The notes under the pieces were generated by a model. It was given only the letters and a program-made list of their open reading frames with translations. It did no database searches and had not been told where the DNA came from. A stretch of DNA of 63,374 bases, filler included, from Bacteriovoracaceae bacterium (GTDB lineage: Bacteria > Bdellovibrionota > Bacteriovoracia > Bacteriovoracales > Bacteriovoracaceae), in assembly GCA_018649885.1 (NCBI GenBank). It is 4 parts of 4 records of this genome, joined end to end, with 100 filler letters (N's around TTAATTAATTAA, not from the genome) between each part and the next. Parts side by side here need not be neighbours in the genome. Positions count along the whole stretch, not along the records: positions 38,815 to 53,671 come from JABIHA010000061.1; 3 more parts are not named here. The stretch is one strand, 5' to 3'. A program made the translations under genes and the position numbers. This document shows, one piece after another, positions 25,382 to 53,671 of the stretch (the first letter of the stretch is position 1; the number at the start of each line of letters is the position of its first letter).

Positions 25382-25558
25382 TATACGAATAGTACAATAG
25401 TACGAATAGCAAAGGAACCACGTACGAATAGCGTACGAATAGCCACCGAATAGCCCTACGAATAGCCCGAATAGCCCAGCCAAAGGAATCACGTACGAAT
25501 AGCCCAAAGGAACCACGTACGAATAGGTACGTACGAATAGGTACGAATAGCCGAATAG
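25354..25558 (-). repeat. stutter array C (14 units, CTATT(C)-starting on minus strand)
   Basis: 14 units ending AATAG on the + strand, four carrying the CAAAGGAAYCACGTAC core. Confidence 0.9.
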
Positions 25559-33649: not shown

Positions 33650-34636
33650 ATGAGGTTTTTTTCTATTGTAGTGATATCTGCAATTTTTTCTATTTCATCT
33701 CTAATGGCCAAGGATATGGAACCCAAATTTAAAAAGTGTATTAAGAAAGGTAAAAAGCCTATGGTCTGCGCTGATCAATGCAGACTGAAATATGCAAAAT
33801 CAGGAAAGGAAAGAAAGCAATGTGGGATTTTAGCAAAAATTGCTAGGCAAGATAAAAAAATAAAAAAAGCAACGAACAAAATCAATAAAGCTCGGAAATC
33901 TTCTAAAAATATAAATAAATCTTTGCGTTCGAGTTTCAAGAAATGTGCTTCGAAGTATTCTAAGAATCTTGAAAAATGTAGAATCAAATGTGTAAAGAAA
34001 GCAAAATCGAAAAACTTGAGCAAGAAGCAATGCAAATTATTGAAGAAGGAGTTTGTTGGTAGTCGAAAAGCAGGAAACTTGGCGAAAAGGCAAAGTAAGA
34101 GAGAGGCCAGGTTTAAGAAAAATAAGGATAGAAAAAATAAAAATCTCGATCGAAAAATAAAAAATGCTCGCAATGATAATGCCAAAAGAAGATTAAAGAA
34201 GAGAAAGAAGAATATGAACAAAAATTTTTCTAAGAAAAATTTTAAGAAAGTTTGCCGTGGCGGAATTCCTGATCGCGATGGTGTTCTTAAAGATCTAAAA
34301 AGTAGAAATAAATGTTGCAAGCAATTACATGCAGAGTTAGCACCAGTTGTAGCTGGAATTTCAGTGGCCGCAGCCGTCGCCACTGTTCTCTCCTTTGGAA
34401 CTGCCTCAATTGCAGTTGCAGGAGGATCCATGGCCATAGCAAGTGTTGCGATTGCCGGCGGTACTAGTGCAGTTGGCGTTGGTTCTGGAATTGGAGCTGC
34501 GGGAGTTGCAGCTTCTGCTACTTTGGGCACGGGAATTAAGAGAATGAATGGTCTTAAATGCAAGCAAACTGGAAAATTATTAAGATCTCTTAAGAGAAAG
34601 GCAAAACTTAAAAAGAAGCTGAATAAATTGAGATAA
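33650..34636 (+). CDS. secreted, very basic Cys-containing protein with Gly/Ala-rich hydrophobic segment
   Basis: Signal peptide; GGAGA RBS; Lys-rich helices; ~65-aa uncharged G/A/V/S stretch. Confidence 0.8.
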   Translation: MRFFSIVVISAIFSISSLMAKDMEPKFKKCIKKGKKPMVCADQCRLKYAKSGKERKQCGILAKIARQDKKIKKATNKINKARKSSKNINKSLRSSFKKCASKYSKNLEKCRIKCVKKAKSKNLSKKQCKLLKKEFVGSRKAGNLAKRQSKREARFKKNKDRKNKNLDRKIKNARNDNAKRRLKKRKKNMNKNFSKKNFKKVCRGGIPDRDGVLKDLKSRNKCCKQLHAELAPVVAGISVAAAVATVLSFGTASIAVAGGSMAIASVAIAGGTSAVGVGSGIGAAGVAASATLGTGIKRMNGLKCKQTGKLLRSLKRKAKLKKKLNKLR

Positions 34637-38814: not shown

Positions 38815-38857
38815 CTTCGTGTCATATCAAAATGTGAGGTGGGTGACTTTTAGGCCG

Positions 38858-39025
38858 TTAAATGGCACTTACCCGGGTGACTATTGGACTGCTAAAACCA
38901 CTTACAATCTTACGTACAGTATTTCTTGCAAGTCCCACTTCCTTCACAGTTGCTTTTATACTTCCGGTAGCTAAAAACTTCATTAAAGTTTCGTCTTTTT
39001 TTTCCTCAGATATACAGTTGCCCAT
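38858..39025 (-). CDS. 55-aa HTH ORF, possibly a transposase N-terminal remnant
   Basis: AGGAG RBS; MGNCISEEKKDETLMKFLATGSIKATVKEVGLARNTVRKIV resembles the IS21 IstA-type N-terminal HTH. Below ORF-track cutoff. Confidence 0.4.
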   Translation of the reverse strand: MGNCISEEKKDETLMKFLATGSIKATVKEVGLARNTVRKIVSGFSSPIVTRVSAI

Positions 39026-39141
39026 AAAAAAAATCTCCTGAACTTAACCCCTCTGGGGTCATTGCCTGTTAATATTTTCTGATGTTAGACAACACTCGGT
39101 CAACTTTAGGAAAAATAATTAGGGATTTCATTTTATAAAAT

Positions 39142-39351
39142 TCAGTAGATTTTATTATCAAGTAAATATTCAAAATATTTAGGTTTTATTCCATATACAC
39201 TTAAAATCATCACTAACACTCTATACTTCGGTATTTTAGTCCGACCATTTTCAATTTGAGAAATATAGCCTTTTGTAACTTTCATACAATCCGCAACGTT
39301 TTGTTGGGTTAAATTCTTTTTCAACCTCAATTCCCTTAACAGATTTCTCAC
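39142..39351 (-). CDS. XRE-family HTH regulator
   Basis: LRELRLKKNLTQQNVADCMKVTKGYISQIENG; start uncertain (GTG 39351 preferred). Confidence 0.85.
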   Translation of the reverse strand: MRNLLRELRLKKNLTQQNVADCMKVTKGYISQIENGRTKIPKYRVLVMILSVYGIKPKYFEYLLDNKIY

Positions 39352-39540
39352 ATTTGCATTTGTATAGCAGTACACTACCAAGGCCCTCCACAGTACACAC
39401 CAATATAACATTTTAAATTAAACAAACTAAAACAAAATGAAATGTAAAAAAGGTATAAACCCAATATTTCTATAGAGTTAGTGAGTAAATGTGAAATGAA
39501 ATGAACATAAGTTAAAGAGCTGATTTTACAATCAGCAGAA

Positions 39541-39617
39541 TGGTGGAGGTGGTGGAGATGCCATAACTCTCCAAAATTAAAGACTCACATTTTGAAAAGT
39601 ACTACAGATTACTACAG
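39541..39617. repeat. att-like site 1: tmRNA 3'-end copy plus ACTAC doublet
   Basis: TGGTGGAGGTGGTGG, 15/15 identical to 48856-48870; ACTAC at 39601 and 39611. Confidence 0.88.
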
Positions 39618-39621
39618 CTAT

Positions 39622-40068
39622 CTATTCACCATTAGAGATTTTAAAACACTGAAGCTCAATTGAGTGATTTTCATCAAAAGAGCTATGAGAAATTCCCCTT
39701 TGACCTTTATCAAATACCACGTTGTAAAGTTTTTCTACTGTAAATCCATCTTCTGCCAGAAACCTAACAGATAAACTTCCATCTCCTGGTTTAAATGCAA
39801 CAGGAGGAACTCTGTCGTACTGAAACTCTGCATACGTTTCACTATACTTAAAGAAATACATTGCATACTGATCATTTGAAAAGATGGGAGTATTGTCTTC
39901 TATTTCGTTTTTTTCTGTTGGTGTAATACTATTAAAAGTATTGTATATCTTCTGAACTATTTCACCACTATCTTTAACCATATAAGAAAGACTACAGTTA
40001 TATCTATCTTCTGCGAAAGCATTGCTAATTAGCCCCATTAATAGACTCGTGAAAATAAATTTATACAT
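39622..40068 (-). CDS. secreted hypothetical protein (cassette cargo)
   Basis: Signal peptide ending AFA; GGGGG RBS. Confidence 0.75.
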   Translation of the reverse strand: MYKFIFTSLLMGLISNAFAEDRYNCSLSYMVKDSGEIVQKIYNTFNSITPTEKNEIEDNTPIFSNDQYAMYFFKYSETYAEFQYDRVPPVAFKPGDGSLSVRFLAEDGFTVEKLYNVVFDKGQRGISHSSFDENHSIELQCFKISNGE

Positions 40069-40260
40069 TTTTTAGCCCCCCAGCTTATTGTGACATCCCA
40101 AAATAATATTTAATTTGGAAAGTTTCTGTTTGACTCAATTATCGCAGATTTAAAGTGGATATAAATAGACATGAAAAAAAAACATAGGGTGCCCAAAATA
40201 ACTTCAATTCTTGAGGTCTCGCCTGGCATTTGATTACAAGAGCTTAGGGGAGAGGAGGAA

Positions 40261-40336
40261 CGGTGGAGGTGGTGGAGTACTTCTAATTTGTTGTTTTTGT
40301 TATGCTCAGTCTTGCAAAGAACTACGGTTAACTACA
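40261..40336. repeat. att-like site 2
   Basis: cGGTGGAGGTGGTGGAG; ACTAC at 40321 and 40331, the same +60/+70 spacing as site 1. Confidence 0.85.
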
Positions 40337-40392
40337 AAGTAATAGACACAGCCCGTATTCCTCCTGGCACCTTATACTTTTCTCAATGGTGA

Positions 40393-41319
40393 TTAATCTT
40401 TGTCCATTATGTTATCCCAGCAATCAGAACAAATAGATTCTTCAGTACTACCACTTTTTATTTGCCCACACTTACTACACCAGTCGATTGAATCGTGAGA
40501 ATAGACTTCAGAGCATTCAAAGCAAATATGGCCATCATCATCAAAACCAAGAATTAAAGATTCCGTTCCACACTCTAAACAATTTTCCAGCACTTCATCT
40601 TGACGACCTTTTGCTATGCCATATGAACTAATATGTAATACGTTCGACCTATAACTGTAGGCAAGGGACTCTCCATCTACTTCAGAATGAAAACAAAAAA
40701 GACACGTTCTATTTTCTGTGCATAGAGGGAAAGTTTCATTAAAACATTCGGGGCATTTAAAAATGACATCATACTCATCCAACTTACCCTTAATTTCTAT
40801 AAGTCTTTTTTTCCGATACGAAGCATATGAAATTATTTTTTCTCTTAATTTAGAAATTGAAGTAGAATACTCCGAACCCTCAACCTCTAGCTTATTTGAA
40901 ATAAAACCCAAGGTGAATTTTAAAACTTTATAGGAAAGGCTTCTTAAAGAATTTACGTTGTCTGAAATGGCATAGTGTTCAATATTTTTTCTTTTATCTC
41001 TTAGAACATACAAGATATTTTCAAATTCTTCACTTATCATTTCTTCTTCAAGTTGGTTCAATCTCAAAATACAGTTCTTAAATGCCACTGACTGAAAGTG
41101 ACCAGATACTAACTTTTTTTCATCAGCCTCATCTACATTTTCAAATAATAAACACCAAGACTCATTAGCCAATCGCTCTTTAAAAGCTAGTGATATCCCT
41201 GAGAATAAGTCTCTAATCGCGTATTTTAACCTACGCTCCTCTTTGGACTCCAAGTGCTCTACAGCAGACTGTAAATAATCGAGCCCATTCTCTAATAATG
41301 TAAAAGTTAGTTCACTCAT
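40393..41319 (-). CDS. HEPN-like protein with C-terminal Zn-ribbon repeats
   Basis: Helical LLENGLDYL...LKYAI...LRDKRKNIEHY (Rx4H); several CxxC pairs. Confidence 0.65.
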   Translation of the reverse strand: MSELTFTLLENGLDYLQSAVEHLESKEERRLKYAIRDLFSGISLAFKERLANESWCLLFENVDEADEKKLVSGHFQSVAFKNCILRLNQLEEEMISEEFENILYVLRDKRKNIEHYAISDNVNSLRSLSYKVLKFTLGFISNKLEVEGSEYSTSISKLREKIISYASYRKKRLIEIKGKLDEYDVIFKCPECFNETFPLCTENRTCLFCFHSEVDGESLAYSYRSNVLHISSYGIAKGRQDEVLENCLECGTESLILGFDDDGHICFECSEVYSHDSIDWCSKCGQIKSGSTEESICSDCWDNIMDKD

Positions 41320-41517
41320 GTTTATTTTTATACCTTATTATTTGTAATTTGCGACTCGATTATTACAAGAGTATTCACAAGTACTGATTCCTACTTAGTT
41401 CCAATGAGTTACAAAAAACTAAAAATTTAATTAATTGTTTCTAAGGGCTCGCAATGAAAAAGTTTTTCTATTAGTGGGTGATGCACCACTGTTATGCATA
41501 GTAGCAGTGGTGGAGCC

Positions 41518-42384
41518 CTAGATGGTGCCTAAAATATCTTTCTCCATCAACTTTCGAAGTGTAATTTTCGTACAGTTTGTCTGGGTTCCATCTTCAGCAG
41601 TGATGCTTAACCCTGGTGAAGAAAATTCTTCATCTAGAACTTTGGAAATCCAAGCAAATTGAGAATTTCCATCGTCAAAGGATGATGAGCATATCCCAAT
41701 TAGTCCAAAATCATTGGTCATTACTGGGCCACCGCTATGTCCAGGTTCTGTTTTAGCGTCTGATTCAATTGTTGGAAAAAAGCAAATGCTGTTGCTTTCC
41801 CCATTCGGATGAAGGTCGACGACTTTTCCTTCACTTTTCACCATAGAAGGTGTGAAATGAACAACCTTGATCTTGTTATTTTCATCACATTCTACTTTGA
41901 ACTGATTTGAACTAGCGGGGTAACCAAGTACTGTGATGCCTGCGCCTTTAGCCACGTCCTCTTTGATAGGCAATCGAGGTCCAGGGGGTAAAGGATCAGG
42001 TGAATCATGTATTACATGTATGATAGCAATGTCGTGATGGAAAAAGACATTCACGCTGTGAGCTTTATGAAAGCTAAAAGATTCGAGGTTATTTCTTTTA
42101 AATATCCCTATTCGATTATCTTCTTCTCTAAGGAGAATTCGTCTCTGTAAAATCTCTGGCTTCCTCCTCTCTCCATTTAAACTTTCAAATATAGGAAAAA
42201 GGTGAGCAGCAGTTAAATATATCCCCATTCTGGCAATCTGGGCACATGAACCTATCAGCTCAATAGGAATACCCTGTTCGTTCAACCTAAAAACCGGGTG
42301 AACTAATTCGTAAACGGAGTGCTTGCTACCAGGAATAGTAGAGTTCTTTGTTGGGACAATTGAGTACGTCACATTTTCCACCAA
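41518..42384 (-). CDS. trypsin-like (S1) serine protease
   Basis: LTAAH, HDIAI and PGHSGGP catalytic triad motifs; weak TTG start next to att site 3. Confidence 0.85.
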   Translation of the reverse strand: MVENVTYSIVPTKNSTIPGSKHSVYELVHPVFRLNEQGIPIELIGSCAQIARMGIYLTAAHLFPIFESLNGERRKPEILQRRILLREEDNRIGIFKRNNLESFSFHKAHSVNVFFHHDIAIIHVIHDSPDPLPPGPRLPIKEDVAKGAGITVLGYPASSNQFKVECDENNKIKVVHFTPSMVKSEGKVVDLHPNGESNSICFFPTIESDAKTEPGHSGGPVMTNDFGLIGICSSSFDDGNSQFAWISKVLDEEFSSPGLSITAEDGTQTNCTKITLRKLMEKDILGTI

Positions 42385-42393
42385 GTTTTCACT

Positions 42394-42463
42394 GAGGTGG
42401 TGATTGTATTTTAACTGTCTGATTTTGTTCAGTTAATTTTTAGAAAGAATACAAATGACTACA
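42394..42463. repeat. att-like site 3 (degenerate core; integrase-proximal end)
   Basis: GAGGTGGTG core; AATAC/ACTAC at 42448/42458, within 1 nt of the spacing at sites 1 and 2. Confidence 0.65.
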
Positions 42464-42505
42464 CGATGTTTCTTACTCTAGTAATTTGAATACTTTACAC
42501 ATTTC

Positions 42506-43594
42506 TTACAGTTTAAAACTTAGAAGACTTGCTGCGGTAGTTGAAGGGTCGTGGAGCTTTAAGCAATCAGAAATCCCAGAAATACTCACCCCTGACTTTC
42601 TCACATATATTTGAAGGGTCTTAAGATCTTTCCAACCTCCGGCCATCATCACCTTTATAGGCGCTATCCCTTTTGAAAGCATTATGGTCGCCCAGGTGGC
42701 TCTTAAATCGTGAAATCTAACCCTAGGAAGTCCTACGCCCTCTAAAAACCTTCTCAACTCACGTGCCTGCTCTCCCCTATCCCACTTATCAATTCGGGGA
42801 AGAACAAAATTAGAATCAGAGTTTTTAATTTTCAATTCTCTAAGAACACAGATTAAGTTAGGGGCGATCTCAACTATCCGGTCATCCCCGCTTTTAGTAT
42901 CTTTGTAACCGTCTTGTTTGCTCCATGAAGAATCAACCTTTATACGGCGGCTTTCTAAATCAACCTTGTCCCAAGTGAGAGCGTATAACTCTCCATTTCT
43001 CATACCCGTATAAAGTGCCATCGCCCAAACTGGATACCACTCAATATCGACAAGTTTTGCCTGCGTTAATAGTGTCCTAACCTGAGATTCTGTTAATGCA
43101 GACTTGATCTTGTCGCCTATCTTAAATTTCATCTTTGGTGTTGGGTTTCGATCAATATAACCAGCCTCAAGGGCGTATTCAAAAGCACTTCTAATGTATT
43201 TTAGAACATTTTTTTGATGGCTTGCTGATCTATTTCCAACTTTTATGGGTATCAGCTCTCTAATTTCTTTTGACGTTATGGAATCAATTAACCTATTACC
43301 CCAATCATTAAAGGTATGAGCCCTTAAACCAAGCCAATAGCTTTCAATGGTTTTTTTTGAAATATCTCTTTGCCCAAGAGCTTCAATGTACTCTTTAACA
43401 AGAGTGGACCAATTTGGGACAACAGTTTCTTTGAACTTCTTGTGCACTTCAACGATGAGACTCGCGTAAACTTGATTGGCCTCTGTTTTTGTTTTTATTG
43501 CCTTACGCCTAAGCGAATAGGGTTTCCTTGTTACAGGGTGCCTCTTACTAAAAGAAACGCTATAAGTTTTAGTCGCTTTCTCGAATTTGATCAT
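42506..43594 (-). CDS. tyrosine recombinase/integrase
   Basis: TGMRNGE (R), TKSG (K), HDLR, GGW (W in place of His), IYVR (Y); N-terminal arm-binding-like region. Confidence 0.95.
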   Translation of the reverse strand: MIKFEKATKTYSVSFSKRHPVTRKPYSLRRKAIKTKTEANQVYASLIVEVHKKFKETVVPNWSTLVKEYIEALGQRDISKKTIESYWLGLRAHTFNDWGNRLIDSITSKEIRELIPIKVGNRSASHQKNVLKYIRSAFEYALEAGYIDRNPTPKMKFKIGDKIKSALTESQVRTLLTQAKLVDIEWYPVWAMALYTGMRNGELYALTWDKVDLESRRIKVDSSWSKQDGYKDTKSGDDRIVEIAPNLICVLRELKIKNSDSNFVLPRIDKWDRGEQARELRRFLEGVGLPRVRFHDLRATWATIMLSKGIAPIKVMMAGGWKDLKTLQIYVRKSGVSISGISDCLKLHDPSTTAASLLSFKL

Positions 43595-43598
43595 CTTA

Positions 43599-43814
43599 TT
43601 AACCTCTAGGCTCTGCCATCAATAGCTTTCTCAAGTCATCAATACGGTAGCGATTACTTCTAAAGAACTTCATATATGGGAGCCGACCGGAACTTGTTAA
43701 GTTGTATAGCCTAAACTTTGAAATACTCAAGTAATTAGCTGCTTCATCAGAATTGAGAAATTCTTTCTCAAACACTCCCGCATCTTTCTCTCTACCTTCT
43801 ACTTTTTTTTTCAT
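43599..43814 (-). CDS. excisionase-like HTH protein
   Basis: FLNSDEAANYLSISKFRLYNL..GRLPY.K....RYRIDDL; immediately upstream of int. Confidence 0.88.
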   Translation of the reverse strand: MKKKVEGREKDAGVFEKEFLNSDEAANYLSISKFRLYNLTSSGRLPYMKFFRSNRYRIDDLRKLLMAEPRG

Positions 43815-43824
43815 GATTTTCCTA

Positions 43825-44439
43825 CTAGCCTTTGAGCACTTTTCGGCATTGATTTAACAGGTTTCCATTTTCTGCATCAAACAATTCTAGTATCTGCTCG
43901 TGCTTGTAATGAGAGAGTAAAGTTATAATATATACATCTCTAAGCAGTCTCTTTCTTGGCCTAAATGATAGAGTTTCCAGCGTAGGAATTTGAGAAATCA
44001 TCCTACGTGTACCTTCCAAATTGATATCATTATTTTCAATAGTTAGTAGCGCGATATCGAGTTTATGAAGTTGACGATACTTAGAATTATCTTTTTTCAT
44101 TTTAAATTCTGTATTGTGAATCTCTCCATCAATTTCAATTGCCAGCCCCTTAAAAACTCTTGGAGACCAAAAATGATCAGCATTATTTACCTCTGGAGCT
44201 TCACCCTTAACGCCAGGAATGAAAATATCAACGTTCCGGTTTCCGATCCAAAAAGAGGTCAAGATTTCACCTGAGTAGTGCTTTCGAATCTCTTTAACAA
44301 TTTTTGCCTCGTGTCTTGTTTGCGTTCTCTCGTATAACTTATACAGCTCCAAGCGCAACATATCGTAAGCAAACTCTAATTCCTGGAATGATACCTTTTC
44401 CTCAACATTTCTAAATAACGACCCTTTCATGGCATGCAT
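43825..44439 (-). CDS. DUF559/Vsr-like endonuclease-domain protein
   Basis: IGNRNVDIF...LAIEIDGEIH...KD....L.KL.I.LL.I.N.D pattern. Confidence 0.75.
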   Translation of the reverse strand: MHAMKGSLFRNVEEKVSFQELEFAYDMLRLELYKLYERTQTRHEAKIVKEIRKHYSGEILTSFWIGNRNVDIFIPGVKGEAPEVNNADHFWSPRVFKGLAIEIDGEIHNTEFKMKKDNSKYRQLHKLDIALLTIENNDINLEGTRRMISQIPTLETLSFRPRKRLLRDVYIITLLSHYKHEQILELFDAENGNLLNQCRKVLKG

Positions 44440-44658
44440 GATTCCTCCTTGGTACTAAAGACCCTGGTTACATTTATTTGTAACTTGTTTAATTCGATAT
44501 ATTTCAAAGGTTTATAAACTTACCTTCAAAACTTTGAGCACTTATTCACTTAGAGACATCTTTGTGCTATTAGTGCCGTAAGTACTTTTTAAACATAATG
44601 CTTGAAGTGTCGTCTGTGGAGTCGGATGAGTTGCCGATTAATTACTGGGAGCGTTATT

Positions 44659-45327
44659 ATGTTAAATGAAAGTCAGATCCAATTTCTAAAAGATGCCATT
44701 AAAATTGAAGCACAGAGGGGCTACTTTCTCCACAATGAATGCAAGAACTATAAAGCAAGAGTGGAAGATGGTAATTTTTGGGAATTCGCAACTTTTCATG
44801 GCGACTTATCAAGGAAGCCAATAAAGCTAGCCCTAACTATAATAGCTGCAATTGAAGCCTCCCAAGGCTCTGTTGTAAACATGGAGTGGTTAAGACTATT
44901 TTTTCAAGAAAAAGGTGAATTTAACAAATTTTTAAATGAGAATATGCTAAATACCTTTTACCGGCCCGAGAGTGCTCCCAAATACACCCCTGATGATAAT
45001 CTTTGGAGTAGAAGATTAAAAAATGATTTGTGGCGCTCAGTATTGAGTCCCCCACTAAAAGGGATTGTTAAAAACACTTCAGGTTCAAAAAATTCTCAAA
45101 AAAAACAATTCCATATTGAAAGTTATATAAGCCCACTTCTCAAGTGTGTTGAAGCAGCGAAATCAGGTGACTCAATGAGGGTTCACCTACAACTATTGGA
45201 AGATGAGCAAAATAATAATGGAATTTCATATGCCGACGCTGAATTTTTCAAAAAAAAACATCCAGACTATTTTAATACAGAGCTAAAAAACATAAAGGTT
45301 CACAAGCTATCAACTGAATTGAATTAG
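44659..45327 (+). CDS. hypothetical protein (island)
   Basis: GGGAG RBS, ATG 44659; no recognised motif. Confidence 0.65.
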   Translation: MLNESQIQFLKDAIKIEAQRGYFLHNECKNYKARVEDGNFWEFATFHGDLSRKPIKLALTIIAAIEASQGSVVNMEWLRLFFQEKGEFNKFLNENMLNTFYRPESAPKYTPDDNLWSRRLKNDLWRSVLSPPLKGIVKNTSGSKNSQKKQFHIESYISPLLKCVEAAKSGDSMRVHLQLLEDEQNNNGISYADAEFFKKKHPDYFNTELKNIKVHKLSTELN

Positions 45328-45334
45328 ATTGATA

Positions 45335-46273
45335 TTAAGCAGCCTTTTTTTCTTCACCTGTACTTGATCCTTCTGGATTATCTTGATCTTTGGCAACAGT
45401 TGACTCGCTTGTATTGGTGACTGGCAATTGTAGGATCGTTGCTCCCTCACCTTCAGTGCTATCACACTCATCACTGGAGTTTGATTTAGAAGTATCACTG
45501 CTCTTGGGTGCTTTAGACTTTTTAGCTGGTTTTTCATTTATCTTTTTAAGTAATTTTTTATTTACTGTATCAACTGAAGATTTCACAATCTGATTTTCAA
45601 TAATTTCTTTAACCATGTCTTCACTTATTTTAAGGCCTGATAGGGTTGAAAGTTCTTTGGTTACTAATTTGATTACTTTATCACTCAGTATTACAGCTAC
45701 TACATCTTCAACTTTTGTAGCTTTCACCTGCTCAGATACCGATTTCCAATCATTATTTAAATATGATGCTTTTGAGAATAAGTAAAATTCTTCAGCTAGT
45801 GACTCAGGGCTATTGTTTGTACCAAAGTCAACCTCATGAATAAGGTTTGCCGTAGGCTCTTTTTTTGATCTCTTAACCATGTAAAGTCGCCATTTCACAG
45901 CATTTGTTAACATGAAAAAATCCATTCCCTTTGTTAGGCAGTAAGACATGGTTTGATCTATGTGATGCTGGTTTAACTCTATATGAGCAGCTTTTGCCTC
46001 GATAACAAAATCAAACTTATCTTTTTTCTTTGAATTAGGACCTTCCATGAGCTTAACAACGTAATCATACCTACTGTTCTTCTCTCTCATTTCAGTTTTA
46101 AGTTCATTATATTTATCGTAACCAAGTACATAAGAAAGTATGTCATTTAAGAGAATTCTTGCATCGTCTTCAGAAGAAGACTTCCCTTTTGCCTGCAAAT
46201 TATGAATCAATGGCATGAATCTTTTCAATTCTTGAGTTATCATTTTTTTATGCTTTGATGGCACCTTATACAT
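45335..46273 (-). CDS. stand-alone HsdR N-terminal-like PD-(D/E)xK nuclease-domain protein
   Basis: SEDDAR...LGYD...E...DY...VIEAKA...Q..SY...FMLTNAVKWRLY; no helicase domain; disordered tail. Confidence 0.8.
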   Translation of the reverse strand: MYKVPSKHKKMITQELKRFMPLIHNLQAKGKSSSEDDARILLNDILSYVLGYDKYNELKTEMREKNSRYDYVVKLMEGPNSKKKDKFDFVIEAKAAHIELNQHHIDQTMSYCLTKGMDFFMLTNAVKWRLYMVKRSKKEPTANLIHEVDFGTNNSPESLAEEFYLFSKASYLNNDWKSVSEQVKATKVEDVVAVILSDKVIKLVTKELSTLSGLKISEDMVKEIIENQIVKSSVDTVNKKLLKKINEKPAKKSKAPKSSDTSKSNSSDECDSTEGEGATILQLPVTNTSESTVAKDQDNPEGSSTGEEKKAA

Positions 46274-46309
46274 AACATTCCCCTATTATTTAAGCTTTTG
46301 TTCACACTC

Positions 46310-46337
46310 GTATCGTCAAAAATGTGTGCTCAACTTA
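46310..46337 (-). promoter_or_regulatory. putative sigma28/FliA-type promoter
   Basis: TAAG-N16-GACGATAC, 36 nt upstream of ATG 46273. Confidence 0.4.
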
Positions 46338-46471
46338 ATTTGTTTCACTAAACGGATTTGTCCTATTTTAAACAAAGCTCATATATTTTGGTGTTTCCAA
46401 ATCATTAGTATTTTCAACCTTGTTAAGCATCCGGAAACTCCACGTGATTCCAGTATTATTCAACGGTTTAT

Positions 46472-47044
46472 TCAACCGTAAAATTTGAGGGTTTTGGAAA
46501 CGGCTGATTTTGTCACCCCAATCCTCTTTGCAATCTGGGAAAGGCTTAATCCTTCAGATCTCAGCCTTATTACCTGGTCAGCATCAATAACCTTTGGCCT
46601 TCCTAGCTTCTTTCCATTGGCCTTTGCATTATTTAGTCCCGCTATGACCCTTTCTCTAATCAATGAGGCCTCAAACTCCGCAAAACTCGCTAGAATATGG
46701 GCCATTAGCCTGCCACTGGCGGTAGTTAGATCTATATTGTCCTTTAAAGAAATAAACTCGATATTGAGATCTGATAGCTCCTGTAGAGTACCAACCATCC
46801 CCTTTAAAGATCTAAAGAGCCTGTCCATCTTCCAACAGATCAAGACATCAAATGCTCTCTGTTTAGCGTCGCTCATAAGCAATCTAAACTCTGCTCTATT
46901 CCCATTGAGCCCAGTTGCCTTATCTTGATAAATGCGGGTTATTTGCCATCCTCTCGCCTTAGAAAAGGCTTCTAAGTCTCTTCTTTGCATTTCGCAAGAT
47001 TGGTCTTCTGTAGAAACTCTGAGGTAAATAGCGACTCTTTTCAT
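46472..47044 (-). CDS. serine resolvase/invertase with C-terminal HTH
   Basis: IYLRVSTEDQ, DRLFRS, AEFE...IRERV..G...A...G..LGRP. Confidence 0.95.
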   Translation of the reverse strand: MKRVAIYLRVSTEDQSCEMQRRDLEAFSKARGWQITRIYQDKATGLNGNRAEFRLLMSDAKQRAFDVLICWKMDRLFRSLKGMVGTLQELSDLNIEFISLKDNIDLTTASGRLMAHILASFAEFEASLIRERVIAGLNNAKANGKKLGRPKVIDADQVIRLRSEGLSLSQIAKRIGVTKSAVSKTLKFYG

Positions 47045-47063
47045 AGACAGAGTATAATGCATC

Positions 47064-47104
47064 GCAATAAATTGTCAAGCAATATATTGTCTTGCAATAA
47101 TTCC
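47064..47104. promoter_or_regulatory. three 15-bp-period direct repeats (GCAATAWATTGTC) between divergent genes
   Basis: Starts at 47064, 47079 and 47094 (third partial). Confidence 0.55.
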
Positions 47105-47125
47105 AACAAAGTTTATTATGTGGTT

Positions 47126-47344
47126 ATGAGAAGAAAGAAGGCCCCTGGGGATTACCCACAATTTTCATTTAGAGTCTCTCCCGATGATAAAGAAGAGCTT
47201 ATGGACAAAGCTAATGACCTCTACCAAAAATTTAATTCAAGCCTTAAAGATGACCAAAGAGTGTACAAGAAAAATGAGATATTAATAGCTGCGTTAAAAA
47301 TTGGATTGAAGCAAATAAAAAAGGCAGACATAGATGACTCATGA
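47126..47344 (+). CDS. ribbon-helix-helix-like DNA-binding protein
   Basis: PQFSFRV strand followed by helices (KNEILIAALKIGL). Confidence 0.65.
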   Translation: MRRKKAPGDYPQFSFRVSPDDKEELMDKANDLYQKFNSSLKDDQRVYKKNEILIAALKIGLKQIKKADIDDS

Positions 47345-48164
47345 GATTCAATTGATTATCAAAGAGATTCAGGATCAAGAGAAGATAAGGGATTCAGCAA
47401 TAAATGTAGTTGGTGGTATTGCTTCTTCAGTCGCTCTATTTACAGATTTATTTGCTACTGGTGGATTCTTATCATTGCTATCTCCAATTGTAGGTGAAGC
47501 CACAAAAAACCTAATACGAGGGCAATTCATTGAGAACAAGACACCTAACAGGAGAACCAAGTTAATAGCATCCCTGAAGCATGCACTAATACAGATTGAT
47601 GATATGCAAAAAAATGGAATTAGCTTTAGAAACGATGGAGAGCTTACTGGAATTTGGTCAGGTAGAACATCAATTGAGGAAATCCTTGAAGATTTTTTTA
47701 AATTCAGCATTAATGAGTCTGAAGCCAAAAAGCTAAAATTTTACTCTAATCTCTTTACTAGTGCAGTATTCGAGAATGGCTTCTCAAAACAAGAGTTTCA
47801 TCATTTAATAAAAACACTTGATACACTAACCTATAAACAGCTGGTGCTTATTAATATCGCATATAAAAAATCTCAGGGTCCTTATCAAACCCTGCTTAAA
47901 GCAGATCACAGTCAGTTTGAAGCCACTCCAGAAAAACTCCCGCCTGAACTACTTTGCACACTTCAGGAAATATTAAATTTATTTCAATTGGGATTTGTTG
48001 GAGAAAGAAATACTGGGGGAACATTTTTAAGTTTACCTGATGCATTTGCAGTGACACCAGATCAGTTAATTATTTATGGCCAAGGAAAAAGGCTCTACGA
48101 ACTCTGTAAATTAGATCAAATTGAAGATGCAGATGTGCAGTATGTTGCTGATCTACTGTCCTAA
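47334..48164 (+). CDS. hypothetical protein, possibly Abi-alpha/DUF4393-like
   Basis: ESEAKKLKFYSNLF...HLIKTLDTLTYKQL pattern; family call tentative. Confidence 0.6.
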   Translation: MTHEIQLIIKEIQDQEKIRDSAINVVGGIASSVALFTDLFATGGFLSLLSPIVGEATKNLIRGQFIENKTPNRRTKLIASLKHALIQIDDMQKNGISFRNDGELTGIWSGRTSIEEILEDFFKFSINESEAKKLKFYSNLFTSAVFENGFSKQEFHHLIKTLDTLTYKQLVLINIAYKKSQGPYQTLLKADHSQFEATPEKLPPELLCTLQEILNLFQLGFVGERNTGGTFLSLPDAFAVTPDQLIIYGQGKRLYELCKLDQIEDADVQYVADLLS

Positions 48165-48198
48165 AGATTGTTTTTTATAATGACTCAATTGCCTCAAA

Positions 48199-48549
48199 TC
48201 AAATATCGTACTTTTGAACAAAATTAATTTCTATTGGTTTATTTGTAGCTGATAGATCATTTTGTGGCTTCTCTGACCAGCCTGCCCTGCACTTAAGCCA
48301 GAACATAGTCATTGCAGGATAGTCTCCAGACATGGCCATTTCAAAGGCTTTGGATGCCACTTCAGTAACTCCATAAGATCGCCCTTTCTCAAGCGCTAGC
48401 TTTAATTCTTCTGATTCAGCGATTCTTCTATCAAGAGTTGATTTTGAAATCCCAAGTGAGCCTGCAATGCTCCCTACGGACAAACCTTTTGCTGCTAATT
48501 GCTCAACTTTTTGAATCTCTTGAGCAGTTAATTCGATTTTATCTCTCAT
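48199..48549 (-). CDS. phage terminase small-subunit-like HTH protein
   Basis: N-terminal HTH (IAGSLGISKSTL), ALEKGR, A.SGD..AM.FWLK.RAGW.E and a C-terminal beta-strand (IEINF). Confidence 0.65.
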   Translation of the reverse strand: MRDKIELTAQEIQKVEQLAAKGLSVGSIAGSLGISKSTLDRRIAESEELKLALEKGRSYGVTEVASKAFEMAMSGDYPAMTMFWLKCRAGWSEKPQNDLSATNKPIEINFVQKYDI

Positions 48550-48678
48550 AGTACCATTATAAGCTCATTTGGGTCTCTTTGTGGAGTTTCAAATTACATT
48601 AGCGAGAGTGCTTTTGTAGTTAACGTCATCTTTCAAAAAGGCTTCCTACAAATGCTTTGAACAATCACATGCCTATTT

Positions 48679-48718
48679 GTAGTCACTTTTTTAGCGGTAA
48701 CTACGGCCGAGTACTACA
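48679..48718. repeat. ACTAC arm-type motifs at the tmRNA-proximal end
   Basis: GTAGT at 48679, ACTACGG at 48700, ACTACA at 48713. Confidence 0.55.
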
Positions 48719-48815
48719 ATTGACATCAACTGGGGTTATTTCAGGTGATTTCCAGTGATGTCGTGGTGTGAACTAATCGTGTTGAAAAAATCTATGTCAT
48801 TGAAAAAGTTGAAAT

Positions 48816-48840
48816 AAAAAAAGCTCCTGCGGTGGAGCTT
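48816..48840 (-). terminator. rho-independent terminator downstream of tmRNA
   Basis: Minus strand AAGCTCC-ACCGCA-GGAGCTT followed by a T-tract. Confidence 0.75.
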
Positions 48841-48855
48841 AATTTAGTTTTTCTG

Positions 48856-49219
48856 TGGTGGAGGTGGTGGGAATCGAACCCACGTCCAAATACCCAATTA
48901 GAATCGGCCTACGTGTGTAGTCTCAAGAGTTTTGGAGTGAGACGCTCCTATCTGGTTTTGTATTACCAGAAAACCTCGGGTGTTTTTTAACGAGTTTACC
49001 GACTGTTCTCGTGAGAGCTTTGTTTAGCGAGTGACTCACGACACTCTTAACCTACTTGTTGTTATTGGTGTAGGCCCCGCAAAGTCTGCTGTTAGGCAGC
49101 CATAGCCATTTGGTTTTCGCCAAATAAAAGTTTGGTCTCCTTTTTACCAGGACCGTGGAGACCAACCTGGACACGCCCGGAACCCTTCTTGATGTACCTG
49201 TCGAAGCCAGTGCACCCCC
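48856..49219 (-). ncRNA. ssrA: tmRNA
   Basis: 5' GGGGGTGCACTGGCTTCGAC; 3' GGACGTGGGTTCGATTCCCACCACCTCCACCA; acceptor stem with G3.U; tag ORF 49121-49092 GENQMAMAA-stop. Confidence 0.97.
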
Positions 49220-49333
49220 ATAGAATTATTCCGATTAATTTCAAAGAACTAAACTAAGATGGATATTACTATAATTTAAAGGGTTCGGGAAATTGTGGAA
49301 TGGGTTTGGGTGAAATTGGGCTAATATGTATGA

Positions 49334-49410
49334 GCCTGCGACTGGGGGAGTCGCCTCTAGGTGTTCCACCCGCATTAAAACGCTCCGCTGGAGCCTTTTG
49401 ATGCGGGTGG
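49334..49410. repeat. palindromic REP-like element / terminator
   Basis: CCACCCGCATTAAAA...TTTTGATGCGGGTGG long hairpin plus a GCGACT...AGTCGC stem. Confidence 0.55.
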
Positions 49411-50148
49411 TCATAATTTAAATTTCTCATCGTAAAATGTAGCAATTTTGCTTGTGATATTTGGGGATTTCAAAAAAACCTTGTCGAAAATTTCTGTGTC
49501 TTCGAATTTTTGATTTGAAGTAACAAGGATAACCCCTTTGGGTCTTTTTTTCATTACTTCGAGAATTTGGACCAGGTTAATACCATCAATTTCACCGCTT
49601 TCTAAACAAGTAATGATGCTATCAAAGTTTTCATTAAGAATTCTACCGAGGGCCTGATAACCGCTTTCAACGATAGAAACAAAGATCCCCTTTTCAGTGA
49701 AATATTCTCTATAAACATTGGCAACCACTCGAGTTTTTTCAACGATCAACACTCTGTGCTCGCTTGCGGAATCCAATTTGATTAACTTATCTAGCTTGTT
49801 ACGGAAGGCGATATCATCTGGAGGGTCGACCAACTTTGCATGCTCAAAAAATTCCGACAAAAGATCCATATACTTTAAAAAACTGTCCACATGATCTGAA
49901 AGGTCATCTTCTTTTTCACAGCAACTATTAAGGAAGTCTTCAAACACGTGAGAAATAGTCGTTCCCATCATTAGACCAAAGCTTCCACTAGTTCCCTTTA
50001 TAGTGTGCAATTCTCTTTTCAATGTATTTAAGGCCTCTGTGCTACCTGATTCATTTTGCAATGCCAAGATGCACTTTTCCACGACTCCAACTTTTTCTTG
50101 GATACTTTCAATAAACTGAATCATGATCTCATGAAAATCATTTTCCAA
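49411..50148 (-). CDS. Hpt domain + response-regulator receiver-like protein
   Basis: RELHTIKGTSGSFG (Hpt His); VLIVE...ESGYQAL...IDG..L receiver with atypical acidic pocket; GGAGG RBS. Confidence 0.85.
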   Translation of the reverse strand: MENDFHEIMIQFIESIQEKVGVVEKCILALQNESGSTEALNTLKRELHTIKGTSGSFGLMMGTTISHVFEDFLNSCCEKEDDLSDHVDSFLKYMDLLSEFFEHAKLVDPPDDIAFRNKLDKLIKLDSASEHRVLIVEKTRVVANVYREYFTEKGIFVSIVESGYQALGRILNENFDSIITCLESGEIDGINLVQILEVMKKRPKGVILVTSNQKFEDTEIFDKVFLKSPNITSKIATFYDEKFKL

Positions 50149-50262
50149 AATTCATCCTCCAAAGCCTTGTACTGTGCTAAGTAACCTCTTCGACTAACTC
50201 TGGACATAACTAAATTTAAGAATATGAAAGAGATATGCGATATAACCATGCAAGTCAGTTAG

Positions 50263-53200
50263 CTAAGGAGCACGCCTTTGCATTATTTCTCCCACCATAT
50301 ATGACTTAAACACAGACCTGCTACCCACTTGAAAGATATGATCAACCCCAAAGCCCCAGCACCTAAGAGCATTAGTTGCACTGACAGCACAACTGACATA
50401 AACATTACTATCAACTTGAATAGCATCATCTATAGGATTGAGGTCTCCCTTTAAAACCGTCATATTCAAGTATTGATTTGTACCGCTAGCATTATCACCC
50501 ATTTGGTATCTCAAACCTGTACCTGCGCAAAAGACTTGGGAGATATCGTCAATAACACATGTTGAAAAGAGACCCAGGGCCACATAAGTTGCCGTACCAA
50601 AATATGTGGGAACTGCATCAACCCTCATGGCCTCATCTGCTATTGCCCTCGGGTTTGTTGTCCCAAGACCTTTTTGAGTATTTACATTTGAGCCCCACAC
50701 CCTGACTGTACCATCAATTAACATGGCAACCGCATGGGAGTTATGTATTTCAATTTGAGAAATATTTGTCATATCGACATTGGGACCAGTCGAGGCCAAT
50801 ACTTTGGTGTCTGCGTAGTTATTTGAGGCCACATTATCATCACCATTAACACCATTACCTGTGGCCCCCCAGCAACTGGCAGTATCATCAGTATAAAGGA
50901 CACATGTATTCTTATCGCCCACTGAAATTTTATCAACTGTTGAAATATTTGTGACAACGTCTGATTTTACAAATTCAGCAAAAGGATTATCAACAGTTGA
51001 GCCATCACCTAGGGCCCCATTAGCACCATCTCCCCAGCACTTTGCATTTCCACCAGTGGTTACAATGCAAGTATGGTTATCTTCTGTACTAATCCAAACA
51101 GCGTCGTTTACAGGAATAGTTGACCCTGCATTGGCCCAAACTGTAACCGCGTGGTTCCTGGATATAGTGGTGTTGTCACCCAACTGATTTTGAGAATTGT
51201 CTCCCCAACACTTGACTGTATTGTCGGTAAACCTGGCACAAGCATGTTTATCACCTGCTACGATTTGGGCGACATTGGTTAGGTCGACTCCCACAGAATC
51301 CTCTACAAATGCAAAACTTGCAGTGGTTGCGGGCAGTGTATGAAGAACAGGGTTGAGATTATTTCCAATAGTTCCCCACTCTCCTCTTCCCCAGCAGCTG
51401 GCCTTACCTGCAGGAGTTCTAATACAAATAAAGAATTTTCCTACGGCAACTTCGGCGGCGCTAATATCTTCATAGGTTATACCAGGGTCACTTCCCTGTA
51501 CTTCCATAAAACCATATTTATCGTTAGAGGAGTCTCTAATACTTCCTAGGGTTCCATACCTACTAGCACCCCAGCATTTTAAAAATCCATCGGGGGGAAA
51601 TAGAGCACATGTAAAATAATCAAAACCATCACTTGCTTGTACTTTTGAGGCCCTTGTTAGGACTGTCGAGCCGTCACTTTTGAAAGCATATTTATCAGCA
51701 TAGTTTGAACCACCAGTCGAATTATTACCAAAATTCCCTGCAGTACCATTTCCCCAACAAATAATTTTCCCGCTTCCTTTTAAAACTGCACAAGTGCTTT
51801 CGCTCCCGACATCGATGCCAACAACCCCTGTCAGATTTGTTACCGCATCTGTTTTTACTATTGTTGCTTTTTCATTATCAGTTGAAAGTCCATCACCTAA
51901 TTTTCCGCTGGTCCCATCTCCCCAACACTTAACCAGACCATCATTTTGTGAAGCACAGGTATGCTTGGCATAGCTTCCACTTCTGAGTGTAAGACTACCT
52001 GTCAGGTTTCCGCCTAAATCATCCAAAACTTGTTGATCGGCGTAGAGTTGATCCGCCAAATTATTATTACCAAGGGCGTAATCTGTCCCTTTTCCCCAAC
52101 ATCTCACTGTGGTGTCGGCCATAAGTGCACAAGTATGATTATTCCCGGCCGTAATATTGTCGACCGCTACAAGATTTGTCGCTACTGCAGAGAGTGCATA
52201 TTCTGCATATTGATTATCGGCAGTCCCACCATTGGCAAGTCGCCCATTAGCACCCTCTCCCCAGCACCGGACTTCTCCAGTATTCAAGCGAGCACAAGCG
52301 TGATAGCCACCAAGGGCAATTTCTGTAACATCTGTTAAAGCAGTAACGGCGTCAGTTTTCACTTGAACCGCCTGCCCTTTGTCAGCATTAAAATTTCCAT
52401 CTCCAAGTTTATAGGGCCAGCTAGTTCCCCAACACCAAACGGTTCCATCAGTTTTAAGTGCACAGGCAAACTGAAATCCCAGAGCAACCTTATCTACACC
52501 GGTTAAATTGCCCCCTCCATCAACCTGAACTATTTGAGGGATGACTGCCATTGAGGTCATATCGTCGGCCACACCGAGCATGCCTTTGTTCATGGATTCT
52601 CGGCCGAGTCCCCAGCATTTCACCGTATCGTCCGTCATCACCGCGCAGCCCATATTTTTTCCTAACTCAAAATAATCAACACCAGTAAGTGCATTGGGTG
52701 AAACTGCTCCCACTCCCACTTTGACCTCTCCCGTGTTGTCCACATGACCAGATCCATCGTCAGCTATAATTTTATCTGCATTGACAACTGAGGCCGCCGT
52801 TAAAATAGTAGAGGTAGCAGGCCCGGCTACAATATTTCCAATGACACTTGCTTGGTTTCCTGTTGAGTCAAAAGTCCAAGTTGAAGAAATTGCCCCTTTG
52901 TAGTTACTACTGGCATCGTATCCAACTGCAAAGAGCTGCATCCCAGTTCCGGCCACAACATTATTGTCCACATTGCCAGTTGAGTATGCGACCCCTGTTC
53001 CATCACTTTTTGACTCCACTCTTATGGAAGCAAGTGCCCCAGCTACAATTTCAAAACCTGCACCAATAACACCTGTATCATCAGTATGAATGCCAACAAG
53101 AATATGAAGGACTGCGTGATCACCTGGAGCAGTAATTTGATCGGCATGAAAAGTCGCCGTGCTCTTTGCATTGTAGGTGTTTACATCACCTCCTCCACTA

Positions 53201-53670
53201 AAAGAGCCTTTGTCATTGGTAAAAGACCAATCAGCACCGGGATTTTCAATAAAATTTGAATCGGCGTCGTAGGCAGCAGCGTAGAGAACAATGTTATCAT
53301 CTGCGGTCATAGCATTGGTTTCTTTTGCGGCTCCACCAGATCCAGCAGCATCGTTGATCCTGACACTGGCCTGGGCCCCTGCTGCTATCTCAATTCCAGC
53401 TGCCACTGTTCCGGTGACATCATTGTGTGCACCAAAAGTAGCTCGCACCACTGCATGATCTCCAGGGGCAGTAACCACATCGGCGTTAAAGGTGACGTTG
53501 CTTACTCCTGAGACCGAATTAACACCGCCATTAAAAGATCCTTTGTCATTGTCAAAAATCCAGTCCGCATTAACATTATCGATCCAATTGGAATCGGCAT
53601 CGTATGAAGAAGCGTAGAGCGTATCTGTTTGGTCTGCAGTTAAGGTATTTGTGTTGAGCTCAGTTCCACC
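50263..53670 (-). CDS. large RCC1-repeat protein with N-terminal Ig-like repeats; 5'-truncated at gap
   Basis: Many H.CA....G.V.CWG....G.LG repeats; frame stays open up to the gap. Confidence 0.85.
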   Translation of the reverse strand, partial: GGTELNTNTLTADQTDTLYASSYDADSNWIDNVNADWIFDNDKGSFNGGVNSVSGVSNVTFNADVVTAPGDHAVVRATFGAHNDVTGTVAAGIEIAAGAQASVRINDAAGSGGAAKETNAMTADDNIVLYAAAYDADSNFIENPGADWSFTNDKGSFSGGGDVNTYNAKSTATFHADQITAPGDHAVLHILVGIHTDDTGVIGAGFEIVAGALASIRVESKSDGTGVAYSTGNVDNNVVAGTGMQLFAVGYDASSNYKGAISSTWTFDSTGNQASVIGNIVAGPATSTILTAASVVNADKIIADDGSGHVDNTGEVKVGVGAVSPNALTGVDYFELGKNMGCAVMTDDTVKCWGLGRESMNKGMLGVADDMTSMAVIPQIVQVDGGGNLTGVDKVALGFQFACALKTDGTVWCWGTSWPYKLGDGNFNADKGQAVQVKTDAVTALTDVTEIALGGYHACARLNTGEVRCWGEGANGRLANGGTADNQYAEYALSAVATNLVAVDNITAGNNHTCALMADTTVRCWGKGTDYALGNNNLADQLYADQQVLDDLGGNLTGSLTLRSGSYAKHTCASQNDGLVKCWGDGTSGKLGDGLSTDNEKATIVKTDAVTNLTGVVGIDVGSESTCAVLKGSGKIICWGNGTAGNFGNNSTGGSNYADKYAFKSDGSTVLTRASKVQASDGFDYFTCALFPPDGFLKCWGASRYGTLGSIRDSSNDKYGFMEVQGSDPGITYEDISAAEVAVGKFFICIRTPAGKASCWGRGEWGTIGNNLNPVLHTLPATTASFAFVEDSVGVDLTNVAQIVAGDKHACARFTDNTVKCWGDNSQNQLGDNTTISRNHAVTVWANAGSTIPVNDAVWISTEDNHTCIVTTGGNAKCWGDGANGALGDGSTVDNPFAEFVKSDVVTNISTVDKISVGDKNTCVLYTDDTASCWGATGNGVNGDDNVASNNYADTKVLASTGPNVDMTNISQIEIHNSHAVAMLIDGTVRVWGSNVNTQKGLGTTNPRAIADEAMRVDAVPTYFGTATYVALGLFSTCVIDDISQVFCAGTGLRYQMGDNASGTNQYLNMTVLKGDLNPIDDAIQVDSNVYVSCAVSATNALRCWGFGVDHIFQVGSRSVFKSYMVGEIMQRRAP

Positions 53671-53671
53671 A

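Follow-up and report, generated by a model that had tools for sequence, protein, structure and literature searches.

Integrase-less cassettes with tmRNA-core att sites behind a small island at ssrA in a Bacteriovoracaceae bacterium

We analyzed the region downstream of the tmRNA gene ssrA in a Bacteriovoracaceae bacterium (GCA_018649885.1), within a window that denotes the whole 63,374-nucleotide stretch (filler included) of joined contigs; the region lies on contig G000:C121 (window 38815–53671), the left end of which is a repeat common to seven other contigs. The 3' end of ssrA recurs there three times, and we interpret these repeats as right-end attachment (att) sites bounding two integrase-less cassettes, which lie beyond an int/xis/terS-like island at ssrA. 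A 9,315-bp circle connects the outermost site with the end of the element next to ssrA, a joining probably carried out by the island's lambda-type integrase, and single cassettes of this kind likely also move alone when such an island visits; to this reading as a whole we assign a probability of about 0.7.

Att sites and the composite circle

Counted from ssrA, the order is a 6,467-bp island, a site, a 2,128-bp unit, a second site, a 720-bp unit, and the outermost site (core-to-core sizes, 720 + 2,128 + 6,467 bp = 9,315). An earlier reading of this DNA made without database searches (hereafter the sequence-only reading) had described small units of 720 bp with one gene and ~2.1 kb with two, in agreement with the measured 720 and 2,128 bp, and had placed copies of the tmRNA 3' end at 39541 (15/15), 40262 (14), and 42394 (9), all of which were verified. 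Exact copies of the 14-mer GGTGGAGGTGGTGG lie at 39542, 40262, and 48857 (ssrA) within the window, and the 5.45-Mb genome has five, four of which are ssrA or these att sites, while positions 42394–42402 hold a 9-bp core only. Read on the ssrA strand, each of the three sites (~77 bp) comprises the doublet TGTAGT-N4-TGTAGT, an AT-rich spacer of 43–45 nt, and the ssrA 3' core CACCACCTCCACCA. The pattern ACTAC-N4-6-ACTAC has three matches in the window against 0.16 expected from shuffles, namely 39601/39611, 40321/40331, and one at 37282 that is unrelated to the att sites. The ACTAC doublet said to follow each core is thus intact at two sites and imperfect at the third (AATAC at 42448 and ACTAC at 42458), and the core-to-arm spacing said to be conserved is 55 and 55 nt at two sites and 54 nt at the third when counted from the shared 9-mer. 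As had also been noted, the 148-aa, 308-aa, and 288-aa cargo genes and int all lie on the ssrA strand, and the last gene of each unit ends by the doublet, with stop codons ~7 nt (148 aa), 58 nt (308 aa), and 43 nt (int) away from it (Table 1).

Table 1. Features of the composite element and its surroundings, in window coordinates
Feature	Position	Strand	Remarks
tmRNA gene ssrA	48856..49219	-	ARAGORN; Rfam RF00023, 123 bits; crossover core (attB/attL) formed by final 15 nt
Whole composite element, 9,315 bp	39541..48855	-	Assembled as circle
Left (P') end	48600..48855	-	Terminator-like hairpin, 10-bp-spaced ATCAC repeats, arm-type pair 48700/48713, inverted arm-type sites 48679 and 48616; putative roles
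Terminase-small-subunit (TerS)-like gene, 116 aa	48199..48549	-	phrog_309, E 1e-18
276-aa open reading frame (ORF)	47334..48164	+	No family match
119-aa ORF	46985..47344	+	Paralogue beside second resolvase on contig C24
Small serine resolvase/invertase, 196 aa	46472..47062	-	PF00239, E 1.6e-42
HSDR_N_2-domain protein, 312 aa	45335..46273	-	PF13588, E 4e-9
241-aa ORF	44602..45327	+	No family match
204-aa ORF, upstream of xis	43825..44439	-	No library match
Excisionase-like HTH_17 protein	43599..43814	-	PF12728; TIGR01764 barely above its cut-off
Lambda-type tyrosine integrase (Int), 362 aa	42506..43594	-	Predicted N-terminal arm-binding domain
Att unit 1 (inner)	42394..42465	-	Imperfect arm doublet, core reduced to 9 bp; 88% identity over 102 nt with a contig C5 site
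Cassette A gene 1, trypsin-like serine protease, 288 aa	41518..42384	-	PF13365, E 3.6e-11
Cassette A gene 2, candidate defence protein, DUF3644/HEC-08/PDC-S64-like, 308 aa	40393..41319	-	PADLOC, E 2e-18 to 4e-14
Att unit 2 (inner)	40262..40337	-	Arm doublet, spacer, 14-bp core
Cassette B gene, 148-aa orphan	39622..40068	-	No family match; likely signal peptide (read from sequence)
Att unit 3 (outer attR)	39541..39617	-	Arm doublet, spacer, 15-bp core; used in circle junction
Terminator-like hairpin, just beyond element	39519..39536	-	
HTH_3 gene beyond circle	39142..39411	-	Preceded by weak P'-like arm

The stretch is contained in at least 20 public runs (16 studies), of which eight were examined, all as assembled contigs, in which presence is informative, absence is not, and rare forms get lost. 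A joint 48855->39541, with 15 letters fitting both sides and thus lying exactly on the core, was found in six of the eight marine runs (X7, X8, X11, X12, X5, and X10), which represent six studies, and is not listed for the contigs of X1 and X2, two runs flagged as possible sources. In X7 and X8, the entire element was assembled as one 9,345-nt circular contig. On the ssrA/host side, the depth was 0 over the roughly 700 nt examined in X7, X8, X11, and X12 and over 4.4 kb in X10, that is, five of the six junction runs lacked the host flank in the stretch examined; in X2, the depth was 15.6 over the element against about 8–9 over the host. The same junction is carried by two JGI contigs with an identical integrase (L182 and L183), the former of which also runs into the chromosomal flank, and the latter of which has a 1.5-kb insertion with a 462-aa ORF inside the leader of the 720-bp cassette. 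This insertion (L183:56–1572), present in the circular form, is insertion-sequence-like and 99.9% identical to G000:C97. Because the 15-bp repeat is shorter than the 31-letter assembly words, repeat collapse should not create the joint.

Another explanation would take the repeats for a dispersed regulatory or RNA motif standing after genes, and the circle for an assembly artefact or a tandem duplication. The motif does follow stop codons closely, the read evidence comes entirely from assembled contigs, and L182 shows the junction together with the chromosomal flank. However, RNAalifold gave 0 consensus pairs on 19 units, no Rfam match besides tmRNA was obtained, the junction falls exactly on the core in runs of six separate studies, five of them free of host flank in the stretch examined, and a tandem duplication at this place would itself require att recombination. 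This explanation is regarded as largely refuted and very improbable.

Thus, the outermost site is a working att site, joined to the ssrA-side end at the 15-bp core, and the circle has arm sites on both sides of that core (the doublet 39601/39611 and the pair 48700/48713). Since joints were found only at the outer site, what is seen to move here is the composite, and both cassettes travel with it as passengers. As in the definition of a cis-mobilizable element (CIME), att-bounded units without recombinase or transfer genes lie in tandem with an integrase-bearing element, and the composite excises by its outer sites (9,315-bp junction). An apparent skip 39616->42386 in X2, considered as a single-cassette deletion, was rejected because its loose end reads the flank of the paralogous array on contig C5, to which it was assigned.

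Integrase, island, and proposed recombination

In the AlphaFold model of Int (predicted local distance difference test score, 87.6; 35-sequence alignment), residues 2–58 form three strands and a helix, and residues 1–342 align to full-length lambda Int (1z1b) with Z 18.1 and a root-mean-square deviation of 7.0 over 310 aligned residues; this Z score is tied with those of other tyrosine recombinases, which align only from about residue 60. The catalytic residues R199, K234, H295, R298, and Y330 are invariant across the 35 aligned homologues, and Arm-DNA-bind_4 was matched in four of these and not in the window Int. The earlier identification of the repeats as core-plus-arm sites of a lambda-type integrase is upheld by the circle junction on one of them and by the full-length fold match to lambda Int, and the N-terminal domain probably binds the TGTAGT doublet.

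Close Int homologues (E<=1e-80) gave 29 matches in 25 of the 150 family genomes, and the 18 matches that share a contig with ssrA are all downstream of it and co-oriented (hand count). Where Int is at least 65% identical (G020, G021, L184, L185, and L187), an att site lies 1.3–6 kb downstream in all five loci, the sites of the last three scoring just 17–23 bits. In a quick tree without marked branch support, the window Int is nearest to those of G021 and G020. A second subclade of ssrA integrases has xis-int beside the left end and triple GTGGCTA-like repeats instead of TGTAGT arms (L058:9293–9620, L057:9465–9800, L180:4750–5136, and L109:12824–13100), and its members insert at ssrA or directly after a cassette site. 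Past ssrA in G031, an 8.9-kb two-armed island (L050:543–9498), in which tblastn found no relative of the window Int, is a candidate non-autonomous island with both ends intact.

The island carries int, xis, and a terS-like gene, has no capsid gene or terL, and is smaller than about 15 kb. Homologues of the TerS-like gene occur in just three of the 150 family genomes, and no relaxase or type IV secretion system was found among the annotated ORFs of the element, four ORFs being without annotation. The 204-aa ORF is, judging by a motif, presumably a DUF559/PD-(D/E)XK-like nuclease, and an Atlas search with the 241-aa ORF returned matches all under 0.9, none usable. For the 148-aa cassette B protein, no homologue was found in 236 family genomes. 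Among the 14 stretches inspected, a similar left-end layout, with an arm pair 130–150 nt past ssrA, is found in the window and in G020, G031, and G027. Beyond the circle, the HTH_3 gene region may represent the left end of another element that is truncated by the repeat at the contig end. Another island of the same genome (G000:C24:70039–75480), standing after tRNA-Met with a distant integrase, has a resolvase/119-aa-ORF pair 71% identical in DNA to that of the window element, a sign of module exchange between islands.

In the mechanism that we propose, a satellite-like island with a lambda-type integrase would insert at the ssrA 3' end, near the T-stem/acceptor junction, before the resident cassettes; the newcomer would enter at ssrA or at a displaced core, shifting older units downstream. 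The N-terminal domain of Int would hold the TGTAGT doublet while an IHF-like protein, perhaps from among the six HU/IHF-family genes of this genome, would bend the spacer, and excision would pair the left end of the island with whichever right-end site works. As the nearest core is reduced to 9 bp, the outermost site would be favoured and the two cassettes captured in cis. The TerS-like protein may then let the circle travel in helper-phage particles. The small cassettes are one-armed, with the right arm and a short leader and without the left-arm pair of the large islands, so that their separate excision would be a simplified or inefficient reaction.

Cassettes across the family and their likely movement

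A site profile was built from 19 sites of eight genomes, which therefore match by construction. It matched 65 of 150 family genomes at E<=1e-3, where weak matches may be ssrA itself, and at least 50 of the 150 besides the genome of the window at E<=7.5e-7 (150 best of 192 matches). A deeper search of five genomes gave 31, 19, 12, 10, and 6 sites, with up to seven units on one contig. Beyond the family, six of 127 phylum genomes had one match each; an exact pattern searched over all GTDB species genomes gave 54 stretches, 40 of them titled Bacteriovoracaceae or Halobacteriovorax, five under broader Bdellovibrionota-level names, and nine labelled Delta- or Epsilonproteobacteria. The gene-accretion platform proposed at ssrA thus recurs across the family. 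In the literature searched (mostly open-access, without supplements), no description of such arrays in Bacteriovoracaceae was found.

A refined hidden Markov model (cut-off, 18 bits; reversed sequence, <=14.9) found 129 armed sites in 64 loci, which had been chosen because of matches. The abutting gene is co-oriented in 103 units, opposite in 19, and absent in seven, and the co-oriented genes stop at a median of 10 nt from the arm (within 30 nt in 74/103). Intervals of <=3 kb account for 55 of 64, of which 27 hold one gene and 16 hold two, with a median interval of 1.4 kb. The prevailing form (103/122 abutting genes co-oriented) is thus a small cassette with its site directly after the gene, as in integrons. 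The spacer is 43–45 nt long in 96 of 105 sites. In 44 of the 105, it contains the IHF-like consensus, as commonly given, with <=1 mismatch, compared with 6.8 for mononucleotide shuffles; repeats of RTGAY at 10-bp intervals occur in 8 of 122 leaders against 0.5 expected, and cassette promoters were not enriched (8 sites vs 11.7 expected). All 36 listed units on the same contig as ssrA (20 genomes) are downstream and co-oriented, 0.46–180 kb away, the others lying on contigs apart from ssrA (99) or in genomes in which no ssrA was found (15).

Pfam was run on 105 of 128 listed cassette proteins, the 23 left out being paralogues or near-duplicates, window proteins already scanned, and large-island genes. 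No Pfam match was obtained for 44 of the 105, and the rest include seven GNATs, three glyoxalases, seven toxin-type proteins (AbiEii, HigB, PemK, BrnT, and Fic), methyltransferases, SnoaL, HIT, and ORF6N proteins, and candidate defence genes. These classes resemble the cargo of integrons. Integron arrays likewise consist of small, mostly co-oriented cassettes with a site after each one, hold very diverse cargo that includes GNATs, glyoxalases, and toxin-antitoxin pairs, and have one anchored insertion point. Toxin-antitoxin cassettes (BrnT and HigB) oriented against the array, known also from large integrons, were seen at L097:7779–11301 (G068) and L105:6553–7893 (G109).

The description "integron-like" fits the anatomy (small co-oriented cassettes, diverse cargo, a single anchor) and not the enzymology. 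A classical integron with IntI and divergent attC sites would account for single co-oriented genes abutting a 3' site and for the cargo classes; however, the IntI model TIGR02249 gives the window Int 30.5 bits against a cut-off of 265, the site has direct rather than inverted repeats with no consensus hairpin, and Int has a lambda-type N-terminal domain. This possibility is refuted. Integrons differ in having IntI and attC hairpins, neither of which is found here; the present arrays are anchored at the 3' end of ssrA, and their recombinase sits on a mobile island and was not found in most array-bearing genomes.

Movement of single units is indicated by relatives. A cassette of ~1.23 kb is 93% identical in G154 and G120, which belong to two genera; the identity begins and ends at the cores, and the neighbours differ on both sides. 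ORF6N cassettes of 650–700 bp, each core-to-core, occur on three contigs of G007 and two of G095, also directly past the ssrA 3' end, and a unit with a 293-aa gene and the same leader is found in different arrays of two genera. Moreover, 47 of 118 leaders belong to shared families, most of them across genera and often before unrelated genes, at a link threshold of 23, where the null maximum of 24 among 2,950 means that a few links may be chance. The ORF6N cassettes (L043, L044, L115, L162, and L166; G007 and G095), with 51–90% self-identity and their own site each, are possibly selfish. A further pair, G154:C209 and G145:C242, 99% identical up to the core and different beyond, was not counted, since G154 has another ssrA and the contig may be misbinned.

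These findings bear on an alternative in which the units are decayed right ends of larger islands (classical CIMEs), stripped of integrase and left arm by deletion and moving only in cis with a resident island. It would agree with the one composite circle and unvaried order at this locus, with small cassettes devoid of left arms, and with the downstream position of all 36 units sharing a contig with ssrA; such accretion is also known from streptococci and has been suggested for 15 of 31 Dehalococcoides ssrA islands, according to the pertinent passages of PMC7563491 and PMC3146451. Random deletion, however, would predict neither left ends beginning at the core and bearing leader families that span genera and unrelated genes, nor stop codons so near the arm, nor a core-to-core cassette with new neighbours on both sides, nor the short ORF6N family of G007 and G095, and Streptococcus salivarius composites held two to three elements, by the account in PMC7563491, compared with up to seven units per contig and 31 per genome here. 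We judge this alternative unlikely.

Several results nevertheless weigh against the reading that we favour, in which att-bounded cassettes are moved by visiting islands. In the contigs of the eight runs, there is no joint or deletion at 40262 or 42394, and neither these runs nor the two JGI contigs show another order of units or a circle of 720 bp or 2.1 kb, the products that the sequence-only reading had proposed to look for. A close Int is present in only 11 of 50 unit-bearing genomes (Fisher p 0.25 for the association, with kin counted as independent), and several close Ints occur in genomes without a unit (G015 and G027). The two leaders of the window belong to no shared leader family; a left arm (GTAGT <=260 nt from the core) is found in nine of 54 small-cassette leaders where 14 are expected; and few moves are traceable, since 87 of the 103 terminal genes lack any homologue in the rest of the set. 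In IMG/VR, a single-protein query found no relative, the att site was not found, and an alignment query found integrases only at <=30% identity; no primase or replication gene was identified in the element, the 241-aa and 276-aa ORFs being without assignment. With neither a primase identified nor a close Int found in IMG/VR, the phage packaging route is conjectural.

Movement of cassettes as single core-to-core units is supported in relatives only, and we consider their mobilization in trans, as first envisaged, likely; at this locus, where separate excision of the 720-bp and 2.1-kb units is partly contradicted, the cassettes were seen moving only in cis. A broader view, to which we give somewhat less than an even chance, is that Bacteriovoracaceae convergently evolved an integron, that is, a family-wide pool of single-gene cassettes, each equipped with a short leader and a one-armed att site of lambda type. 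Integrases arriving on phage satellites would excise and insert these cassettes singly at ssrA, and the satellites would also acquire cassettes and spread them between genera.

Four more strong sites occur elsewhere in this genome, C5 and C91 having two each, and C135 has two weak matches. The C5 array (G000:C5:47016–49650; L001:11017–13650) has two sites 88–90% identical to window sites 42394 and 39541, the 9-bp-truncated core being common to both copies, and its cargo differs, consisting of a probable toxin-antitoxin pair, a 102-aa ORF, and a DUF3644-like gene with 29% identity. In the C91 array (G000:C91:5685–7020; L002), one of the two cassettes encodes a GNAT and the other contains a 212-aa ORF; they are flanked by an aconitase B-like gene on one side and by glycosyltransferase-like genes on the other. 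The contig ends are inverted repeats, and a strong inverted repeat lies at about 5660–5710. Secondary insertion sites away from ssrA, first suggested by the arrays of C5, C91, and G007, were dropped because every unit sharing a contig with ssrA is downstream of it. The C5 and C91 contigs end in repeats; the C5 flanking gene is far from ssrA in four relatives and on another contig in a fifth, and the C91 flanking gene was not found in these same five.

Relation to known systems

The closest known systems, as far as the cited sources describe them, are CIME accretion and the Dehalococcoides ssrA islands; the partner island resembles tycheposons of the phage-inducible chromosomal island (PICI)-like type, and the array looks like that of an integron without being one. 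In streptococcal CIMEs and ICESt3-type accretion, as portrayed in the passages on them in PMC7563491, integrase-less att-bounded units likewise stand in tandem at a target-gene 3' end, distal to an integrase-bearing element, and are excised together with it as a composite. Unlike these, the present arrays have no conjugation or relaxase genes found, consist mostly of single genes abutting the site, reach 31 per genome, share short leaders, and have a small TerS-like island as partner; their origin as decay products is doubtful, and the leaders shared across genera argue against simple deletion from an integrative and conjugative or mobilizable element.

The Dehalococcoides islands (McMurdie et al. 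2011, PMC3146451), by what that paper states of them, similarly have many ssrA direct repeats downstream of a single ssrA, conserved sequence beside the repeat, and many members without the integration module; they differ in their CcrB-like serine recombinase, multi-kb size, and presumed circular intermediate. Here, there are a lambda-type tyrosine integrase and an arm doublet, a 1.4-kb median interval, and a circle junction seen in assemblies, and the DsiB serine integrase module is absent from the element, the sole serine recombinase being of the 196-aa resolvase type. PICI-like tycheposons and satellites, in the relevant parts of a preprint (bioRxiv 10.1101/2020.12.28.424599), share the tRNA/tmRNA-targeting tyrosine integrase, xis, small serine recombinase, and terS, a size of about 10 kb, a marine origin, and the driving of additive islands. 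That preprint, in those parts, saw no extra cargo on PICI-like ones, in contrast to the att-bounded cassettes on the circle here; moreover, no primase or helicase was identified here, and the host phylum differs. Islander tDNA islands (PMC4383910), as defined there, also leave a displaced 3' tDNA fragment, with identity starting close to the junction of T-stem and acceptor (their subsite J).

Such arrays are missed by Islander as well as by attC-based tools. Islander needs an integrase per island, so that such arrays are filtered out, and its account gives only four tandems of three or more in 2,168 genomes (PMC4383910); with IntegronFinder, no integron is given for one Bacteriovorax in the portion of PMC12642874 concerned. 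The extent of horizontal transfer in predatory bacteria is called unknown in a passage of PMC5760749, and the present arrays suggest a concrete route for gene acquisition in these organisms. With the 77-bp profile, genes carried on cassettes can now be delimited for mining, in the way that attC allows for integrons. Because the locus supplies an integrase, xis, three sites, and an observed product, one-armed lambda-type cassette shuffling is directly testable.

Elsewhere in the window, five imperfect 33-nt repeats built on CGTACGAATAG units (25360–25537) lie upstream of a 202-aa gene, which we take from its motifs to be akin to transposases associated with repetitive extragenic palindromes (RAYT/Y1). 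The 328-aa ORF at 33650–34636 is very rich in lysine, has a hydrophobic C-terminal stretch rich in glycine and alanine, and is accompanied by a 262-aa antisense ORF.

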